In this document: positions 3,733 through 27,200 of the stretch, piece after piece
Layout of the letters: the number at the start of each line of letters is the position of its first letter
Position numbering within the stretch: the first letter of the stretch is position 1
Assembly (NCBI GenBank): GCA_002774055.1
Contig: PEZL01000005.1
Location: forward strand, 1,101 to 35,961
DNA from: Candidatus Tagabacteria bacterium CG09_land_8_20_14_0_10_41_14
Lineage (GTDB): Bacteria; Patescibacteriota; Minisyncoccia; JAHISW01; Tagabacteraceae
DNA length: 34,861 bases
Direction: 5' to 3'
Notes under the pieces: generated by a model
The model's database searches: none
Told to the model about the DNA's origin: nothing
What the model saw: only the letters and a program-made list of their open reading frames with translations
Made by a program: the position numbers and the translations under genes

Positions 3733-3761
3733 TTTTTATTGTTTCCTTTCAATGAACTAAC

Positions 3762-3790
3762 TTGCTCTAATGAAAAATAAATCATATTTT
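3762..3790 (+). promoter_or_regulatory. Candidate sigma70-type promoter for comEC (TTGCTC-17-TATTTT), ending 7 nt before the ATG
   Basis: -35 at 3762..3767, a 17-nt spacer, -10 at 3785..3790, ATG at 3798. This implies a leaderless or near-leaderless mRNA. Confidence 0.4.
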
Positions 3791-3797
3791 TAGGCTA

Positions 3798-5219
3798 ATG
3801 GCAAGGAAGTTTTTGTTTTTTATAATATTTTTCGCGGTCGGCATCTTTACCGGTTCTTTCTTTGATTTATCCGTTTATTTCGGCCTGTTATTCGTTTTTC
3901 TCGCTTTAACTCTCAAATTATTGAAGTTGAACTTCAATAACTTGGTATTTTTTGTGGGTATGTTGGCGTTTGGGCTGGGATTTTCATGGTATGCTTATGA
4001 AGTTATCCCGCCGGATTTGTCTGATTTTCAGATTGGCAGGCAGGTTTTACTGGAGGGCGTTGTTGCTGATGAAGCGGATGAAAGAGAAAATTACACGCGT
4101 TTGGTTTTGGAAGTCGGGAGCGGCGCCAAAATTTTAATTTATACCGGTCATTATCCGAAGTTTAATTACGGAGATAAATTAAAAATTTCCGGCGAATTGC
4201 GAAAACCGGAAAAAATAGATGATTTTGACTGGCCGGCTTATTTGGCAAAAGACGATGTTTACCTTGAAATGTTTTATCCGGATATTGAATTGATTTCCGT
4301 CGGTAACGCTTCCCGGATTAAGCGCTATCTGTTTTCTTTGAAGGCAGACCTTCTTTCAAATGTCTCGCGCGTCATTCCCGAACCCCACGCGTCGTTTTTG
4401 GGCGGGCTTACTTTTGGCGCCAAGCAGAGTATGCCGAAAGGTTTGCAGGACGATTTTCGCAAAACCGGAATTATTCATATTGTGGTGCTTTCCGGGTACA
4501 ACGTAACAATTGTGGCGGATGCCATTATGCGTGTTTTTTCTTTTCTGCCTTCTTTTTTTGGCATCGGACTTGGAGCGCTGGGTATCGCCGCTTTTGCCGT
4601 AATGGCCGGCGCGTCGGCCACGGTGGTTCGCGCTTCTATTATGGCGGTTTTCGTTTTACTGGCTCGGGCTACCGGCAGGATTTACGAAATCACCATAGCG
4701 CTTTTCGCCGCCGGCTTTTTAATGATTTTGCACAATCCGAAAATTCTTCGGTTTGATTCTTCTTTTCAGTTGTCTTTTTTGGCGACAATGGCTTTGATTT
4801 GGGTGGCGCCTATTGTGGAACCAAAATTGAAATTTTTTCCAAAAAAATTTCATATTCGCGAGTTTGCCACAGCCACTATTTCCACCCAGATTTTTGTATT
4901 GCCCCTTCTTTTATATAAGATGGGCTTGTTTTCCGCGGTGAGCGTGCCGGTTAATCTTTTGATTTTAATTTTTGTGCCGGCCACCATGCTTTTCGGGTTT
5001 TTGACGGCCGCAGCCGGTTTTGTCTGGTATTATTTAAGTTTGCCTTTTGGCTGGATAACTTACGTCTTACTGCATTACGAGTTAAAAGTTGTTGAAGTGT
5101 TTGCTTCTTTGCCTTTCGCGTCTTTCGCGATTGATAATTTTCCATTGTGGGTTATGTTGTCGGTGTATGCCGGTTATGCTATTTTAATCTTTTATGGTAA
5201 AGATAAAAAAATATTTTAG
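3798..5219 (+). CDS. comEC: ComEC/Rec2 DNA-uptake channel protein (membrane part only)
   Basis: 473-aa multi-pass membrane ORF. The N-terminal OB-like region is followed by the competence-domain signature GLTFGAKQSMPKGLQDDFRKTGIIHIVVLSGYNV. It lacks the C-terminal MBL domain, which is encoded by the next ORF. Confidence 0.85.
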   Translation: MARKFLFFIIFFAVGIFTGSFFDLSVYFGLLFVFLALTLKLLKLNFNNLVFFVGMLAFGLGFSWYAYEVIPPDLSDFQIGRQVLLEGVVADEADERENYTRLVLEVGSGAKILIYTGHYPKFNYGDKLKISGELRKPEKIDDFDWPAYLAKDDVYLEMFYPDIELISVGNASRIKRYLFSLKADLLSNVSRVIPEPHASFLGGLTFGAKQSMPKGLQDDFRKTGIIHIVVLSGYNVTIVADAIMRVFSFLPSFFGIGLGALGIAAFAVMAGASATVVRASIMAVFVLLARATGRIYEITIALFAAGFLMILHNPKILRFDSSFQLSFLATMALIWVAPIVEPKLKFFPKKFHIREFATATISTQIFVLPLLLYKMGLFSAVSVPVNLLILIFVPATMLFGFLTAAAGFVWYYLSLPFGWITYVLLHYELKVVEVFASLPFASFAIDNFPLWVMLSVYAGYAILIFYGKDKKIF

Positions 5220-8078: not shown

Positions 8079-8657
8079 ATGGTGAAGCCCGGAGAAAAAA
8101 CTTATCTAAAATATAAAATTTGCGTTTCAGGCGCGGCGGAAACAGGCCATTGCGCGGCCGGTACCTTGGAAAAATCCAAGCAGTTGGGAAAGGAGATAGT
8201 CAAACATAACGCTGTTTTGGTGAACGGCGCGACAACGGGTTTTCCTTTGTGGGCCGCCATGGGCGCCCAGGAAGCCGGCGGTTTTACCATTGGTCTTTCT
8301 CCCGCTTCATCCGAAAAAGAGCATATTAACGATTATAAACTCCCGGTTGATTATATGGATATTATTATTTACACAGGTTTCGGCTATGCGGGCAGGAATC
8401 TTTTGTTAACCCGTTCGTCAGATGCTGTGATTGTTGGCTGCGGCAGAATAGGCACTTTGAACGAGTTTACTGTTGCCTTTGAAGATGATAAGCCGATAGG
8501 TATTTTAATTGATACGGGAGGGACGGCCGATATGGTAAAAAAAATTGTGGATAATTCGCATCGCGGTCCGGGAAAGATTATTTACGAATCCGACCCTAAA
8601 TTGCTGGTGGAAAAAGTTTTAGAAATGATAAAAAAGGAGAAAATTATTGAGTTATAA
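8079..8657 (+). CDS. LOG / TIGR00725-like Rossmann-fold nucleotide-binding protein
   Basis: 192 aa with ICVSGAA..., VNGATTGFPLWAAMGAQEAGGFTIGLSP and DAVIVGCGRIGTLNEF, the pattern of the 'possible lysine decarboxylase'/LOG family. Confidence 0.6.
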   Translation: MVKPGEKTYLKYKICVSGAAETGHCAAGTLEKSKQLGKEIVKHNAVLVNGATTGFPLWAAMGAQEAGGFTIGLSPASSEKEHINDYKLPVDYMDIIIYTGFGYAGRNLLLTRSSDAVIVGCGRIGTLNEFTVAFEDDKPIGILIDTGGTADMVKKIVDNSHRGPGKIIYESDPKLLVEKVLEMIKKEKIIEL

Positions 8658-10549: not shown

Positions 10550-11821
10550 ATGAAGATTATTGCTGATTTGCATATTCATTCTAAATATTCTCGGGCAGTG
10601 TCTGGAGATATGACGCTTGAGAATATAGCTTCGCACGCGCGGAAAAAAGGTATACAGGTGGTGGCTACCGGCGACTTCACGCATCCTGCCTGGTTTGGTG
10701 AAATAAAAAATAAACTACAACCGGCGGAAGAAGGACTTTTCAATCTCAAACCTCAAATCTCAAATCTCAAATCTCCAGACACACGATTCATGCTTACGGT
10801 GGAGATTGCTTGTATTTATTCAAAAGGCGGAAAGGTAAGACGGCTTCATCATGTTGTGTTCGCGCCTACAATTGAGGCGGTTGAAAAAATTAATAAAAAA
10901 CTTGCGTGGATAGGAAATCTGAAATCAGACGGCAGACCCATGCTGGGACTGGATTCGAGAAAACTTTTAGAAATAATTCTGGAGGCGGATTCAAGATGTG
11001 TTTTAGTTCCGGCGCATTGTTGGACTCCGTGGTTTTCTATTTTCGGCTCAATGTCCGGATTTGATTCTATTGAGGAATGTTTTGATGAAATGAGCCCGCA
11101 TATTTTTGCCGTTGAAACAGGCTTGTCTTCCGACCCGCCAATGAACTGGCGGTTATCGAGTTTGGATAATGTTTCTTTGATTTCTAATTCAGACGCGCAT
11201 TCTCTTTCAAAACTTGGCAGAGAGGCAAATGTTTTTGACTGCGGGTTGTCTTACGCTGAAATCGTGTCGGCGATCAAAGAAAGAAATCCTGAAAGATTTT
11301 TGTACACAATAGAATTTTTTCCGGAGGAAGGGAAGTATTATTACGACGGACATCGTAATTGCGGAATTGTTTTTTCTCCGGAACAAACAAAAAAACATAA
11401 TGGATTGTGTCCGAAGTGCGGAAAAAAATTGACGGTGGGAGTTTTGAGCAGAGTAGACGAGCTGGCTGACAGAAAGGACGAACTTGTTCCGGACCGAGCC
11501 AAGAGAGTTCCTTATAAAAGTTTAATTCCCTTGGTTGAAGTGATTGCCGGGGCAAAAGGCGTTGGTCCGCAGACTAAAACCGTAGCAGTGGAATATGATA
11601 AATTGATTAGTAAATTTGGCTCCGAGTTTTTTGTTTTGTTGGACGCGCCCATTGATGAAATTGAACAGATTGTTGATTCTAAAATCGCGGAAGGTATAAA
11701 AAGAATGAGAGAAGGTAATGTAAAAATTGAACCGGGCTATGACGGAGAGTTTGGAAAAATAAAACTGTTTGATGAAGGAGAAAAAATGGAAGAAGAAAAA
11801 AAACAAAAAAGTTTATTTTGA
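10550..11821 (+). CDS. PHP-domain endonuclease, EndoQ-like (TIGR00375-type)
   Basis: 423 aa. The N-terminus MKIIADLHIHSKYSRAVSGDMTLENIA...VATGDFTHPAW is a PHP metal-binding pattern. A CPKCGKKLTVGVLSRVDELAD zinc-finger segment follows. The architecture matches endonuclease Q family proteins. Confidence 0.65.
   Translation: MKIIADLHIHSKYSRAVSGDMTLENIASHARKKGIQVVATGDFTHPAWFGEIKNKLQPAEEGLFNLKPQISNLKSPDTRFMLTVEIACIYSKGGKVRRLHHVVFAPTIEAVEKINKKLAWIGNLKSDGRPMLGLDSRKLLEIILEADSRCVLVPAHCWTPWFSIFGSMSGFDSIEECFDEMSPHIFAVETGLSSDPPMNWRLSSLDNVSLISNSDAHSLSKLGREANVFDCGLSYAEIVSAIKERNPERFLYTIEFFPEEGKYYYDGHRNCGIVFSPEQTKKHNGLCPKCGKKLTVGVLSRVDELADRKDELVPDRAKRVPYKSLIPLVEVIAGAKGVGPQTKTVAVEYDKLISKFGSEFFVLLDAPIDEIEQIVDSKIAEGIKRMREGNVKIEPGYDGEFGKIKLFDEGEKMEEEKKQKSLF
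10744..10778. repeat. Tandem heptanucleotide repeat (T/C)CTCAAA x4 plus a partial unit, inside the EndoQ-like CDS
   Basis: tctcaaa cctcaaa tctcaaa tctcaaa tctccag, encoding ...LKPQISNLKSP... Confidence 0.9.
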
Positions 11822-11842
11822 AAATTGAATTACCCCGCAACC

Positions 11843-11874
11843 AAAAAAAAGAAGCCCCGAGCGTTGCCGAGGCT
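11843..11874 (-). terminator. Rho-independent terminator on the minus strand
   Basis: The minus strand reads AGCCUCG-GCAACGCU-CGGGGCU-UCUUUUUUUU: a 7-bp stem with one G.U pair, followed by a U8 tract. On the plus strand the same position would be a C.A mismatch. Confidence 0.7.
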
Positions 11875-12049
11875 TTTAGGAAGATTGTCTCGCTGTGCGA
11901 GATCCCGCGTAGCGGGAAAAATTGTAAAGGTCCTATATTTATAACGCGGGGAAAGAAGATTAAAACTCTTGAATTATTTTATTTCGTTATACTACCGGAC
12001 TCTTGGAGAAAAAATCTCCTTTCCCTGCATTTTTCAAAACTGTAATTCT
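11843..12049 (-). ncRNA. Candidate structured small RNA of unknown class, about 200 nt
   Basis: Bounded by a TTGACA-16-TAAAAT promoter (12056..12083, minus) and the terminator at 11843..11874. Contains hairpins CCCGC-UAC-GCGGG, UCUCGC-ACA-GCGAGA and GGAGA-U6-UCUCC, and a 13-bp helix GGGAAAGGAGAUU/AAUCUUCUUUCCC. The longest ATG-initiated minus-strand frame is only 12 codons. No minus-strand protein gene lies nearby. Confidence 0.5.
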
Positions 12050-12055
12050 GTTTTA

Positions 12056-12083
12056 ATTTTATTGTTGTTAAAAAAGATGTCAA
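12056..12083 (-). promoter_or_regulatory. Near-consensus sigma70-type promoter (TTGACA-16-TAAAAT) on the minus strand
   Basis: The plus strand shows ATTTTA at 12056..12061 and TGTCAA at 12078..12083. It points towards the candidate sRNA. Confidence 0.5.
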
Positions 12084-12259
12084 TAAAAAAGCTGTGGATA
12101 ACTATTTTTTAGAATTTCTAATTTTGTAATTTTATAATTTTGTAAATAAATCTTAATTTTTAAAAATTGAAACATTAAAAAATTATTTAAAAATTTCAAA
12201 AATTAAAAATTAAAAATTAAGATAACGATTAAGCCGTATATTCAATATATTCAATAAAA

Positions 12260-14005
12260 ATGAATCAAGAAATAGCAAAAATATTTTATGAAATCGCGGA
12301 AATTCTTGAGATGAAAGAAGTGGCTTTTAAGCCGCGGGCTTATCAAAAGGCGGCCCAATCTATCCAAGGTTTAGACGAAAATGTCAAGACTATTTTTGAA
12401 AAAAAAGGTATTAAGGGCTTGGAGGAAATTTCAGGCGTTGGTGAAGGTATTGCCGAGCGGATTGTTGAATATATAAAAAAGGGGAAAATAAAAGGTTATG
12501 AAAAATTAAAAAAAGAAATGCCTGTTAACATTTCCGAACTCGTTTCAATAGAAGGCGTGGGGCCGAAGTTGATAAAACTTTTTTACGAAAAATTAAAAGT
12601 GAGAAATATAAATGATTTGGAAAAGGCGGCGCGTCATGGAAAAATTTCTACTTTGCCTCGTTGCGGAAAAAAACTGGAACAAAAAATTTTACAAGGGATT
12701 GAGTTTTATAAAAAATCACATGAAAGATTTTTGTTGGGCGATGTTTTTGAGTTGGCGGAAAAAATCAAAAGCCGTTTGTCTGAGTTAAAAGAAACGGAGA
12801 AAATTGAAGCGGCCGGCTCTTTTAGAAGAAAAAAAGAAACAATTGGCGATTTGGATATTTTGGTTGTTTCAGAAAAACCAAAAAAGGTGATGGATTTTTT
12901 TGTTTCAATGCCGGAAGTGCGGCATGTATATGGCAAGGGATTGAAAAAAACAATGGTGCGTTTGAGCAACGGATTGGATGTGGATTTAAGGGTGGTGGAT
13001 GAAAAATCTTTCGGCTCGGCTCTGCAGTATTTTACCGGCAATAAGGCGCATAATATTGAATTAAGAAAAATTGCGCTCAAGAAAAAATACAAGCTGAATG
13101 AATACGGATTGTTTAAAGTTGGAAGTAAAAAGTCAGAAGTTAGAATCGCCGGCCAAAACGAAAAGGAAATTTATAAAAAACTTGGCTTGCAATTTATGCC
13201 GCCGGAAACGAGAGAAAATACCGGCGAGATTGAACTGGCTCAAAAAAATAAATTGTCTGAGTTTATTGAAGAGAAAGATATAAAAGGCGACCTGCATATT
13301 CATTCGCATTGGAAAGTGAAAAAGGGATTGATTAAAGAAAGAATCAAAAAAGCCAAAGAACTGGGTTATGAATATTTAGGAATTTCCGACCATACGAAAT
13401 TTTTGGCCATTGAGCATGGATTAAACGAGCAAGATTTATTGAAGCAATCAAAAGAAATTGAACGTTTCAGGCTGCATGTTTCAGGTTTCAAGATTTTGCA
13501 TGGCTGCGAAGCGAATATTTTGACTGACGGCTCTATTGATATTGATGACAAAGTTTTGTCCAAGCTGGATTATGTTATTGCCGGCGTTCATTCCCAAATG
13601 AAAATGTCAAAGGAAAAAATGACCGAAAGAATAATCACGGCCATGAAAAATCCGCATGTTGATATCATTGCTCATCTGACAGGAAGGGTCATACAGCGCA
13701 GGGAAGAATACGAAATTGATTTTGATAAAATTTTGCGGGTTGCCAAAGAAACCGGCACAATTTTGGAAATAAATGCCAACCCGGTTAGGCTGGATTTGAA
13801 TGACGTCAAGATAAGGAAAGCCAAAGAGTTCGGAGTTAAAATGATTATTAGCTCTGACGCGCATCAAAATGAACAGATGGATTTGATGAAATTCGGCGTC
13901 TGGCAAGCCCGTCGCGGCTGGGCCGAGAAAAAGGATATCGTAAACACGATGTCTTTCAAAGAAATCTCCGGTCTTTTCAAAAAGCCCAAAAAGAAGAGGT
14001 TTTAA
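12260..14005 (+). CDS. polX: DNA polymerase X family protein with a C-terminal PHP domain
   Basis: 581 aa. N-terminal HhH repeats (GVGEGIAERI, GVGPKLIK), the Pol-beta nucleotidyltransferase core AAGSFRRKKETIGDLDILV, then the PHP domain GDLHIHS...GISDHT...SSDAH. Confidence 0.9.
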   Translation: MNQEIAKIFYEIAEILEMKEVAFKPRAYQKAAQSIQGLDENVKTIFEKKGIKGLEEISGVGEGIAERIVEYIKKGKIKGYEKLKKEMPVNISELVSIEGVGPKLIKLFYEKLKVRNINDLEKAARHGKISTLPRCGKKLEQKILQGIEFYKKSHERFLLGDVFELAEKIKSRLSELKETEKIEAAGSFRRKKETIGDLDILVVSEKPKKVMDFFVSMPEVRHVYGKGLKKTMVRLSNGLDVDLRVVDEKSFGSALQYFTGNKAHNIELRKIALKKKYKLNEYGLFKVGSKKSEVRIAGQNEKEIYKKLGLQFMPPETRENTGEIELAQKNKLSEFIEEKDIKGDLHIHSHWKVKKGLIKERIKKAKELGYEYLGISDHTKFLAIEHGLNEQDLLKQSKEIERFRLHVSGFKILHGCEANILTDGSIDIDDKVLSKLDYVIAGVHSQMKMSKEKMTERIITAMKNPHVDIIAHLTGRVIQRREEYEIDFDKILRVAKETGTILEINANPVRLDLNDVKIRKAKEFGVKMIISSDAHQNEQMDLMKFGVWQARRGWAEKKDIVNTMSFKEISGLFKKPKKKRF

Positions 14006-14052: not shown

Positions 14053-14060
14053 ATTTGTCG

Positions 14061-14405
14061 GGTGGAGATGGCGGGAATCGAACCCGCGTGCAAAAAGTTT
14101 TTCAAAATGAATCTACATGCTTATCCTGATTTGTTTAACTCAAAAAATATAAACCAGGCAAAAATTTTTTGAGGGTGATTCTAGTTTTTAATAATTTCTT
14201 CGAATCAGGAGAAATTATCTATCTCAAAAAATGACACTCGCGATTGTCTATTGAGAATCGGCAGGCGAGCGTGCTTTAAGCGTATGCTAAAGCAGGAGTT
14301 TTGAATAAGTTTGCACTTATTTGATTTCTAAAAGTTTAACGAGGTTTTAGAATACTCGGCATGCACGATTTTGAAAAAGGCTTTTTGTCGATGCCGATCA
14401 TCCCC
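14061..14405 (-). ncRNA. ssrA: tmRNA (transfer-messenger RNA)
   Basis: The minus strand starts GGGGAUGAUCGGCAUCGACA and ends GCGGGUUCGAUUCCCGCCAUCUCCACC. The acceptor stem GGGGAUG/CAUCUCC has the G3:U pair, with a T-arm GCGGG-UUCGAUU-CCCGC. The tag frame GCA AAC TTA TTC AAA ACT CCT GCT TTA GCA TAC GCT TAA encodes ANLFKTPALAYA* (14276..14314). It lies immediately downstream of smpB. Confidence 0.9.
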
Positions 14406-24287: not shown

Positions 24288-27200
24288 ATGGATTTTTCTA
24301 AAAATGAGGAAAAAATTTTAAAATTTTGGAAAGATAACGGTATTTTTAAAAAATCTCTTGACAAGGAAGCTCCACGGGGAGATTTTGTTTTTTACGAAGG
24401 CCCGCCTACGGCCAATGGCCGGCCGGGTATTCATCATGTTGAGGCGCGCGCCTTTAAGGACTTAATTCCGCGTTTTAAAACAATGCGGGGGTTTAGGGTT
24501 TTAAGAAAAGCCGGCTGGGACACCCATGGTTTGCCGGTGGAGATAGAGGTGGAAAAGAAACTCGGTTTTAAAGGAAAAAAAGATATTGAAGAGTATGGAA
24601 TAGAGGATTTTAATAAGAAATGCAGAGATAGCGTGTGGGAATATAAAGAAGATTGGGAAAAAATGACTGAGCGTATTGGTTTTTGGATTGATATGGAGAA
24701 TCCTTACATTACTTACAGCACTGATTATATTGAAACACTTTGGTGGATTATAAAAACTGCGCATGAAAAAAAGTTTTTATACAAGGGTTATAAGGTGGTG
24801 CCTCATTGTCCGCGTTGCGGCACCGCGATTTCTTCACACGAGGTGGCTCAAGGCTACAAAACTATTACCGAGGATTCGGTAATAGTTAAATTCCAAATTA
24901 CAAATTCTCCCGCTACGCAGGAACTTGCGAAGCAAGACAAATCACAAATTCCAACTTATATTTTGGTTTGGACCACTACGCCTTGGACTTTGCCGGGCAA
25001 TGTAGCATTGGCAGTTGGTGAAAAACTTGATTATGTAAAGATTAAACAAGGCGAGGAATTTTTTTATATTGCTAAAAATTTATTAAACAAAATTAAGGGG
25101 GAATATAAAATTGTTGAAGAAATTAAAGGTAAAAAGCTTGTTGGTTTGGAATACGAGCCGCTTTTTCCGGAAGCCGTTAAAAAGACTGATGAAAATTTCA
25201 AAAACGCTTTTAAGGTTTATTCGGCTGATTTTGTTTCTGTTGAAGACGGCACCGGTGTGGTGCATACGGCTGTGATGTACGGCGTTGACGATTATGAGTT
25301 AGGAGAAAAAGTTGGTTTACCAAAAGTCCATACCGTAAATCTAGACGGAACTTTTAATGAAAGGATTTTTAAGTGGCAGGGAAAATTTGTTAAAGCCGTT
25401 GAAAAAGAGATTATAAAAGATTTGGAAGAAAGAAAGTTACTTTATAAAACGGAAAAATATTCCCATGATTATCCTTTTTGTTGGAGGTGCGATACACCTC
25501 TTTTGTATTACGCCAAAGACAGCTGGTATTTTAGGATGAGCGAATTGCGTGATGATTTAATAAAAAATAACAAAAAAATAAACTGGATTCCGGAATACAT
25601 TAAAGATGGCCGATTTGGAGAGTGGCTCCGCGACGTGAAAGATTGGGCTATTTCGCGGGAGCGTTATTGGGGAACGCCGCTGCCGGTTTGGCAATGCGAT
25701 AAATGCAATGAGGAAAAAGTAATTGGTTCTGTTGAAGAAATAAGAAAAGAATTAGGCGGAATAAATAAATTATTTTTAATAAGGCACGCGGAGGCGGAAA
25801 ATAACATGGAAGGTATTAACAACTCACTTCCTGAAACAAAAAAATATCCGCTTACAAAAGAAGGAGAAAAGCAGGCGGAGAAAGTGGCCGGGGTTTTGAA
25901 AGAAGCAAAAGTTGATTTTATTTTTAGTTCACCTCTTTTGCGCGCAAGGCAGACTGCCGAAGCGATATCTGAAAAGATTGGTATTGAGATAAAATTTGAC
26001 GACAGGTTGAGAGAAATTGATTTGGGAGAGTTGAATAATCATCCGCACGCCGAATTACAGGAATTTTATCCCACCCAGGAATCGCGCGCGAAAAATACTG
26101 GGCATGGTGTTGAAAGCGGGGTTGATGTCAGGAAAAGAACGGAAGATTTTTTGGAGGAGATAAACGAAAAATATAAAAATAAAAATATCGTTATTGTTTC
26201 CCACGGCGATCCTCTTCAGATTTTATACGGCGCGGCGCAAGGAATTGATTTGTTTGATTCGCTTAAGGGCTGGTATCCGTTAAAAGGTTCTTTAAAACAA
26301 GTTTATTCAAAGCCGCTTGATTTACATCGGCCTTATATTGATGAAGTGGTTTTGGATTGTAAATGCGGCGGGAAAATGAAAAGAGTGCCGGAAGTGGCGG
26401 ATTGTTGGTTTGATTCCGGCTCTATGCCGTTCGCGCAGTTTCATTATCCTTTTGAAAATAAAAAATTAATTGACGAAGAAAAATTATTTCCGGCCGATTT
26501 TATTTCCGAGGCCGTTGATCAAACTCGAGGTTGGTTTTACACTCTTTTGTCCGTGTCTACTTTGCTCGGCAGGGGGCCGTCGTTTAAAAATGTGATTTGT
26601 TTGGGGCATGTTTTGGATAAAAATGGGCAGAAAATGAGCAAGAGCCGTGGTAATGTCGTAGATCCGATGGAAATGATTAAAAAGTACGGGGCTGATACGG
26701 TGCGCTGGTATATGTATATTATAAATCAGCCGGGTGACCCCAAGCGCTTTGATGAAAAAGATTTAAAAGAGGCCAGAAAAATTTTTGTGACCCTGGCTAA
26801 TGTTTTGGTTTTTTATAAAATGTTTACCCCGTTAGAAGTAGTTTCGCGGAGCGAAACGCAAGTTCTAACGGGGTTTGCCCTAGACAATGTTTTAGATAAA
26901 TGGATTTTGGCTAATTTAAATTTGTTAATTAAAGAAATAACGGAAGGTTTAGAGAAATACGATGTTACCACGAGCGCTAGAAAAATTGGAGCTTTCATTT
27001 TAGATTTATCGCAGTGGTATCTGAGGAGGTCTAGGGAAAGATTCAAGGGAGATGACGGCGGGGCGCGAAAAACTTTGCGTAAGGTTTTGGTTGATTTAAG
27101 CAAGCTAATGGCGCCCTTCGCGCCGTTTATTGCCGAACATATTTATCAAGAATTAGGCGGGAGAGAACAATCGGTTCATTTGGAGCGTTGGCCGGAAGTT

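Follow-up and report, generated by a model that had tools for sequence, protein, structure and literature searches.

What lies in the 438-nt gap between two plus-strand genes of Candidatus Tagabacteria bacterium CG09_land_8_20_14_0_10_41_14, one EndoQ-like (10550..11821) and the other polX (12260..14005)? The window analysed is a stretch of 34,861 nucleotides of contig PEZL01000005.1; its genome is called G000 here, the family of that genome f1, and the contigs of G000 carry C-numbers. Both strands of the gap were read. The minus strand very probably carries a real gene for a non-coding RNA of a new family, uncatalogued in Rfam, which is predicted to run from 12052 to 11843 and measures about 205 nt in G000 and about 165-195 nt in relatives. 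An earlier note on this DNA had proposed a structured minus-strand RNA in the gap, either a novel small RNA (sRNA) or a 6S-like RNA. The sequence features that it listed were all present, within 1-2 nt of where it had placed them, and its reading as a novel sRNA is upheld by conservation, covariation, an asymmetry of G-U pairs between the strands, the lack of a conserved reading frame and the lack of an Rfam match.

The predicted gene begins with a sigma-70-type promoter, TTGACA-16-TAAAAT (12083..12056, minus strand), matching the consensus at 11 of 12 positions. Transcription is expected to start at about 12052-12048, and the conserved 5′ end of the RNA, AA(U/C)AGA, begins at 12052. A perfect DnaA-box 9-mer, TTATCCACA, lies inside AGTTATCCACAG on the same strand (12093..12101), 9 nt upstream of the −35 hexamer. 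The gene ends in an intrinsic terminator (11843..11875, minus strand) with a 9-bp stem and a 6-nt loop; the GC-rich stem occupies 11875..11852 and is followed by a C and by U8 at 11850..11843. The same hairpin probably also serves the convergent EndoQ-like gene as a weak plus-strand terminator (4 U). Promoter-like and terminator-like matches are not above chance in this AT-rich region, with four of the former found against 5.3 expected from shuffles and two of the latter against 1.9. These sites alone therefore prove nothing, and the real support for them is conservation in relatives.

When 40 relatives were searched by BLAST with the region, two members of family f1, G004 and G005, matched it in part, each time in the gap that separates an EndoQ-like gene from polX. 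The alignment of the three sequences begins at a common AGTTATCCACA and continues over promoter and RNA as far as the terminator. Covariance models (R1-R3) were then built from three, five and seven sequences in turn. With these models a single copy was found in seven of the eight genera of the family and in all seven near-complete genomes; the genome of the eighth genus, which gave no match, is only 80% complete. The order has only one other family, which gave no match. A search of 400 genomes of the class added two convincing matches, in G158 (33.9 bits) and G298 (32.4 bits). Both loci combine the TTATCCACA box and a −35/−10 pair with an RNA that starts with AAUAGA, forms the long helix, includes a CUUUxACAAUUU-like strand and has a terminator. 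The −35 (TTGNNN) and −10 (TAAAAT or TATAAT) elements recur at the equivalent place in relatives, and a hairpin followed by a run of 5 to 8 U on the RNA strand terminates the RNA in all nine homologues. Both the minus-strand promoter and the clean intrinsic terminator described earlier are thus confirmed.

Several other candidates were set aside. The weak model matches L033, L034, L154, L155 and L156 were rejected, as they are without the layout of box, promoter and terminator. A pattern scan of metagenomes with GTTATCCACA-N155-183-TTTACAATTT gave no model match among the 80 listed loci (119 matching stretches), all of which were false positives. No RNA was found upstream of polX in seven polX-anchored loci from genome contigs, and BLAST against a phage collection gave no match. 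In strain variants from other samples the RNA region was identical, with no insertion polymorphism, and the identical locus occurred in several samples.

The predicted RNA is strongly structured. For the minus-strand RNA 12050-11843 a minimum free energy of −61.1 kcal/mol was calculated (z = −4.2, none of 200 shuffles as good), and the plus strand of the same region folds less well (z = −2.9). In a model-fitted alignment of seven sequences 89% of cells pair and 14 of 26 pairs are changed on both sides. None of 500 shuffles reached the observed percentage of pairing, the number of pairs changed on both sides or the covariation score, and pairing fell to 43-56% when the partners were slid by 1-3 columns. 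As this alignment leans towards the model, a second one was made from nine sequences with MAFFT and its structure predicted freely with RNAalifold. It recovers the same long helix, P2, with compensatory changes in 15 of its 18 pairs, compared with 11 of 18 in the model-fitted alignment. The fold is kept by covariation over about 110 nt.

From the 5′ end, the consensus opens with a small hairpin, P1 (12029..12050), of five pairs, with 89% of cells paired and two pairs changed on both sides. P2, of 18 bp, encloses the 3-bp helix P2a, an asymmetric internal loop and a short variable apical hairpin. Its 5′ strand AAUGC-A-GGGAAAGGAGAUU (12013..12031) is purine-rich and resembles a Shine-Dalgarno sequence; the 3′ strand AAUCUUCUUUCCC-C-GCGUU (11943..11961) is pyrimidine-rich. 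The 13-bp helix that had been pointed out between GGGAAAGGAGAUU (12025..12013) and AAUCUUCUUUCCC (11961..11949) is part of the minimum-free-energy fold, contains one G.U, extends to these 18 bp and covaries. Above P2 stands the conserved apical motif UCUCCAAGAGUCC (11997..12009), of which CCAAGAG is identical in four of the seven family members. Within it, CUC (12008..12006) is the partner of GAG (11968..11966) in P2a, which is supported as helix 3 of the alignment, and CAAGAG makes up the 5′ side of the large internal loop. This loop has 6 nt on one side and 12-18 nt on the other, the 5′ side being the conserved unpaired UCUCCAAGAG(U/C)C. The apical region beyond (11969..11996) is variable. 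Its hairpin P2b is weak in G000; in relatives it covaries and is followed by a 12-18-nt A/U-rich strand, and in per-genome folds its sequence differs in every genus (UCCC/GGGA, CCGAC/GUCGG, GGGUC/GACCC, GCCGA/UCGGC and others). The 3′ part consists of a small variable hairpin, P3, the conserved single-stranded motif CCUUUACAAUUU (11919..11930), a linker and the terminator. Apart from the promoter, CCUUUACAAUUU is the best-conserved block, and it is a candidate functional contact or seed.

Not every pairing that had been proposed proved to belong to the conserved RNA. The hairpins CCCGC-UAC-GCGGG and UCUCGC-ACA-GCGAGA are present in G000, although as parts of an inserted repeat (11888..11917) found at this locus in that genome only. 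The GGAGA-U6-UCUCC hairpin can form in most genomes, but it does no better than shuffled or slid controls and has no covariation support. A competing long-range pairing of CCCCGC with GCGGGG is discarded, the latter (11839..11834) being downstream of U8, outside the expected transcript and not conserved in relatives.

Which strand is transcribed can be read from the G-U pairs. Several positions of P2 are G-U in some genomes, where the opposite strand would have A.C mismatches; these pairs fit the minus strand only, which is therefore taken as the RNA. The G.U of the 13-bp helix and the U.G of the terminator stem, from which the same had been argued earlier, are present as described.

There is no reading frame that is open in all nine homologues, and three of them have stops in all six frames. 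The longest minus-strand AUG frame is indeed only 12 codons long; its AUG is missing in G004 and in G001 it is reduced to a methionine and a stop. As this frame is not conserved, a small protein was rejected. Public assemblies call a 75-aa plus-strand open reading frame (ORF) at 11818-12045, with a TTG start overlapping the stop of the EndoQ-like gene and antisense to the RNA. This frame is not conserved either, and the annotation is probably a false gene call, so that a ‘hypothetical protein’ on the opposite strand can be corrected in the public record. If that call were right, or if the gap were a mere spacer whose terminator works both ways and whose promoter arose by chance, there would be no RNA gene, and the chance-level frequency of promoter-like and terminator-like matches would fit. 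Such a reading is scarcely credible: the 75-aa ORF begins inside the EndoQ-like stop region and neither strand has a frame open across the homologues, the changes in the helices are compensatory with G-U on the minus strand only, and box, promoter and terminator travel with the RNA to other loci.

Can the RNA be assigned to a known family? Rfam was searched both at its gathering thresholds and at permissive E-values. At E≤10, region 11700-12350 gave nothing above noise (fragments of rimP leader, snoRNA, miRNA and Phe_leader that fit terminators), and at E≤1 no model matched the RNA in the eight other homologous loci. In the window, Rfam finds only the transfer-messenger RNA (tmRNA, 14060-14405) and a tRNA, and the RNase P RNA of G000 is located elsewhere (C26:2030-2377). 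The earlier remark that the RNA does not match the conserved cores of the signal recognition particle (SRP) RNA, RNase P RNA or tmRNA agrees with this.

The SRP was pursued because it could have explained a single-copy ‘housekeeping’ RNA. Neither RF00169 nor RF01854 matched in the region or in the whole G000 genome; a wider search of the class, covering 41 genomes with RF00169 and 13 with RF01854, was empty as well. For PF00448, the SRP54-type GTPase domain found in Ffh and FtsY, the matches in 13 genomes did not go beyond P-loop level and none in G000 or its family passed the cut-off; one borderline match among the 13 spans only the first 40 model positions. The domain scored in all 14 control genomes. 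A six-frame motif search for an SRP-GTPase ORF with DT[AS]GR or GxxGxGKT found none, and the best weak match was a PilB/GspE ATPase. With both RNA models empty and Ffh and FtsY undetected, an SRP RNA identity was rejected; a candidate picked by motif at C19:11624 is not an SRP RNA either. As an observation in its own right, no SRP system is detectable in G000 and 12-40 relatives of the class. If this holds, a whole class would have lost a pathway that is nearly universal, which would be remarkable.

A 6S-like RNA would mimic an open promoter and in this way bind the RNA polymerase holoenzyme. The RNA is similar to 6S RNA in length (about 170-200 nt), in being present across the family in single copy and in following a strong promoter; no 6S RNA is detectable anywhere in G000, and P2 with its large internal loop and apical hairpin, a long helix with an internal loop, loosely recalls the stem-bubble-stem layout. 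The 6S model RF00013, however, gave no match in 11700-12350 (E≤10), in the whole G000 genome (E≤1) or in the eight other homologous loci (E≤1). The architecture differs as well. The 5′ and 3′ ends form no closing stem, since the 5′ end makes a hairpin of its own and the 3′ third is a single-stranded tail with the terminator; there is no symmetric central bubble between two long arms, the ‘upstream’ arm being no more than a 4-5-bp hairpin and the two sides of the loop differing greatly in length. The 6S-like reading thus fails on both counts and is considered very unlikely.

The position of the gene raises the question of whether it acts on its neighbours. Five of the nine homologues (G000, G003, G004, G005 and G158) have the RNA gene flanked by the EndoQ-like gene and polX and on the strand opposite to them. 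In the other four (G001, G006, G007 and G298) it stands in unrelated neighbourhoods with the same promoter and terminator, for instance beside RelE-like and GIY-YIG genes in G007 and beside histidine kinase and LOG-like genes in G001, so that the homologues occupy three or more different gene neighbourhoods. The antisense label given earlier holds for position only, and not throughout the family. As promoter and terminator are kept even where the neighbours differ, the RNA gene is regarded as a self-contained unit. The RNA of G001 is about 360 nt upstream of a LOG-like gene. The orthologue of that gene in the window is the LOG/TIGR00725-like gene at 8079-8657 (plus strand), which belongs to the same gene string, 3.3 kb upstream.

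Cis-antisense regulation of a repair operon made up of the EndoQ-like gene and polX would suit the five linked genomes. A plus-strand transcript reading from the former into the latter, or the polX 5′ UTR, would overlap the minus-strand RNA, and polX expression would be set by duplex formation or transcriptional interference. Only 3 nt separate the polX start codon from the DnaA box in G003 and G004, too few for polX to have a promoter of its own outside the RNA gene, and the terminator is weak in the plus direction (3-4 U). On the other hand, four homologues keep the same RNA, promoter and terminator in unrelated neighbourhoods, the compensatory changes preserve a secondary structure that a purely antisense function would not need, and G000 has a 150-nt AT-rich spacer with a promoter-like site of its own before polX. 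Regulation of polX by this route is improbable as the explanation of the gene. It cannot be the family-wide function, while an effect on polX is possible in the five linked genomes, above all in G003 and G004. The spacer of G000 (12100-12255) is about 150 nt long, very rich in A and T with AAATT/AAAAATT tandem repeats, and separates the RNA promoter from polX; it is absent from G003 and G004. It also holds the only strain-level variation of the whole gap, seven changes at 12219-12227.

That the gene has a promoter and a terminator to itself, is mobile between neighbourhoods and is conserved in single copy speaks for an RNA that acts in trans, and it would do so through its two conserved unpaired motifs. 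Both are pyrimidine-rich and anti-Shine-Dalgarno-like (CUCC and CCUUU), and P2 pairs the Shine-Dalgarno-like purine strand (AAAGGAG) with a CU-rich strand. On these grounds a trans-acting, base-pairing regulator of translation initiation is a first, tentative guess. The unpaired motifs might contact mRNAs through CUCC and CCUUU pairing in the manner of the sRNAs with C-rich seeds in Gram-positive bacteria, or they might contact a protein partner. Target searches with both conserved motifs, made in G000 only, gave no convincing target.

A protein-binding or ribonucleoprotein role in place of base pairing comes second and is somewhat less probable still. In its specific form, in which the RNA is the scaffold or partner of a dedicated protein and the CAAGAG loop and the CCUUUACAAUUU strand are protein-binding sites instead of seeds, it would account for a shape kept over a longer stretch than most base-pairing sRNAs need, for conserved motifs held in a defined loop geometry and for the missing mRNA target signal in G000. 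It is nevertheless doubtful, as no protein gene is consistently adjacent across the homologues and none of the known RNA motifs that bind proteins was recognised; inspection by eye gave no fit to the k-turn consensus.

How might the gene be controlled? A perfect TTATCCACA DnaA box stands upstream of the −35 element in all nine homologues. Seven of them have 8-9 nt between the two; in G005 and G158 the distance is about 19-20 nt, approximately one helical turn more. G000 encodes a DnaA with the C-terminal DNA-binding domain, its gene being split over two contig ends. DnaA bound beside the −35 element would set RNA synthesis, and the RNA level would thereby be tied to the state of replication initiation. 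We rate gating of the promoter by DnaA as an evenly balanced proposal.

Four copies of TTATCCACA in G000 lie in the layout of a box followed by N7-9 and TTG: that of the RNA gene, those at C6:537 and C36:13577 and one upstream of mraZ. The units at C6:537-~640 and C36:13577-~13690 (both plus strand; L164 and L165) are short combinations of hairpin and terminator behind AGTTATCCACA-N7-8-TTGACA, without an Rfam match, and the C6 unit is directly upstream of an NYN/LabA-like gene. Upstream of mraZ, at the start of the division and cell-wall cluster, three perfect DnaA boxes were found within 90 nt (C17:4874-4959), one of them in the same box-N9-(−35) layout. At C29:8697-~9080 (plus strand) a DnaA-box promoter and an TAAAATTAAAATAGAA start region as in the RNA gene precede a structured leader and a 43-aa Lys/Ala-rich basic protein. 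A further uncatalogued promoter-to-terminator unit resembling an RNA gene, with GGACA...UGUCC elements, is found at C22:~3760-3950 (plus strand; L166), directly upstream of a LOG/TIGR00725-like paralogue; it is distinct from the RNA at 12052..11843. One could speculate that several unrelated sRNA genes with AGTTATCCACAG-N7-9-(−35), here the RNA gene and the units at C6:537 and C36:13577, form a DnaA-gated small-RNA network peculiar to Patescibacteria, though we think this unlikely. If it were so, the replication initiator would double as a master switch of post-transcriptional control in bacteria with tiny genomes and few regulators, and an RNA often encoded between the EndoQ-like gene and polX would link the status of replication initiation to DNA repair or translation.

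An independently transcribed gene for a structured RNA, which would act in trans and may be gated by DnaA, is, as a whole, the likely explanation of the locus. Several points weigh against it. The structure is supported by nine sequences, seven of which come from one family, and the main alignment is model-fitted. Outside family f1 the RNA was found in two genomes only, and the closest relatives of these, G158 and G298, gave no covariance-model matches; out there the RNA either diverges past the reach of the model, is patchy, or sits on mis-binned contigs. The polX mRNA of G003 and G004 must run antisense through the RNA gene, because the polX start abuts the box. The complement of CCUUUACAAUUU is not enriched in G000, with one exact site, which is the gene itself, and six sites with one mismatch, and a duplex scan of about 980 start regions in that genome gave no outlier beyond z of about −4. 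Finally, TTATCCACA occurs 21 times in G000 and only four copies have the promoter layout, so control by DnaA is deduced from sequence only.

The repeat that supplied the two small hairpins deserves separate description. It is a 30-nt dispersed element of two 15-nt hairpins, TCTCGCTGTGCGAGA TCCCGCGTAGCGGGA on the plus strand, inserted at 11888..11917 specifically in G000 and without counterpart in the conserved RNA; in G004 and G005 the aligned sequence runs through this position with the 30-nt core missing, which gives the empty site. The 520-kb genome of G000 contains nine perfect and about three imperfect tandem-hairpin copies in both orientations, and in a variant family, TCCCGCCACAGCGGGA TCCCGCATTTGGCGGGA, compensatory changes preserve the hairpins. 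Other families of the class have copies too, at 84-92% identity. Within G000, seven copies are situated in frame in long ORFs (325-1140 aa) in both orientations, among them those for ValRS-like protein, GatA and IleRS. They are located at 24905-24938 in the window (IleRS) and at C16:5901-5930, C27:4493-4522, C7:3933-3962, C17:4204-4236, C35:13948-13980 and C40:5243-5272, measure 30-33 nt and are translated as about 10-11 added residues, for example FPATRDLAQRD or VSLCEIPRSGK.

The copy inside the RNA gene is flanked by AAGATTG (11881-11887) and AAAATTG (11918-11924), that at C40 by GATTTG on both sides. The similar flanks hint at a target-site duplication at ACAATTT-like sites, though the AATTG-rich, low-complexity context makes this uncertain. 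The 3′ end of CCUUUACAAUUU, ACAAUUU, coincides with the insertion site. The repeat sits in the variable linker between the single-stranded CCUUUACAAUUU and the terminator, and the insertion apparently left the conserved parts of the RNA undamaged. It is a documented case of a tiny mobile double hairpin inside an RNA gene that did not destroy the conserved parts.

The Patescibacteria, or Candidate Phyla Radiation, make up a large share of bacterial diversity, and to our knowledge almost nothing is known of their gene regulation; we know of no sRNA regulators described in them. In literature searches, neither an RNA of this kind nor sRNA promoters with a DnaA box were found to have been described in this group. 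A single-copy RNA family supported by covariation and preceded by a conserved DnaA box offers a testable entry into RNA regulation in Patescibacteria, with a possible link to replication.

Three known systems bear comparison with this locus. The inserted repeat resembles Rickettsia palindromic elements (RPE), repetitive extragenic palindromes (REP) and miniature inverted-repeat transposable elements (MITE) in being short, palindromic and dispersed, either intergenic or in frame in essential genes, and in occurring in either orientation. Its core is only 30 nt compared with about 100-150 bp for RPE, and here one copy is found inside an RNA gene. The nearest functional analogues of the RNA itself are the regulators RsaE/RoxS of Bacillota with their C-rich seeds. 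Like these it is about 100-200 nt long, has its own promoter and Rho-independent terminator and no ORF, and exposes unpaired pyrimidine-rich CUCC and CCUUU; unlike these it has a much longer covarying helix and motifs that are not repeated C-rich loops, and there is no similarity in sequence or model. As for its control, promoters regulated by DnaA include those of dnaA, nrdAB and mioC in E. coli and the DnaA regulon of B. subtilis. The promoter described here appears similar in having a perfect TTATCCACA upstream of the −35 element, at a distance that is fixed and in phase with the helix, and the AGTTATCCACAG-N7-9-TTGACA layout is also seen at the two other short RNA-like units of G000. The DnaA regulons known to us control protein genes, whereas here the box would control a gene for an RNA.

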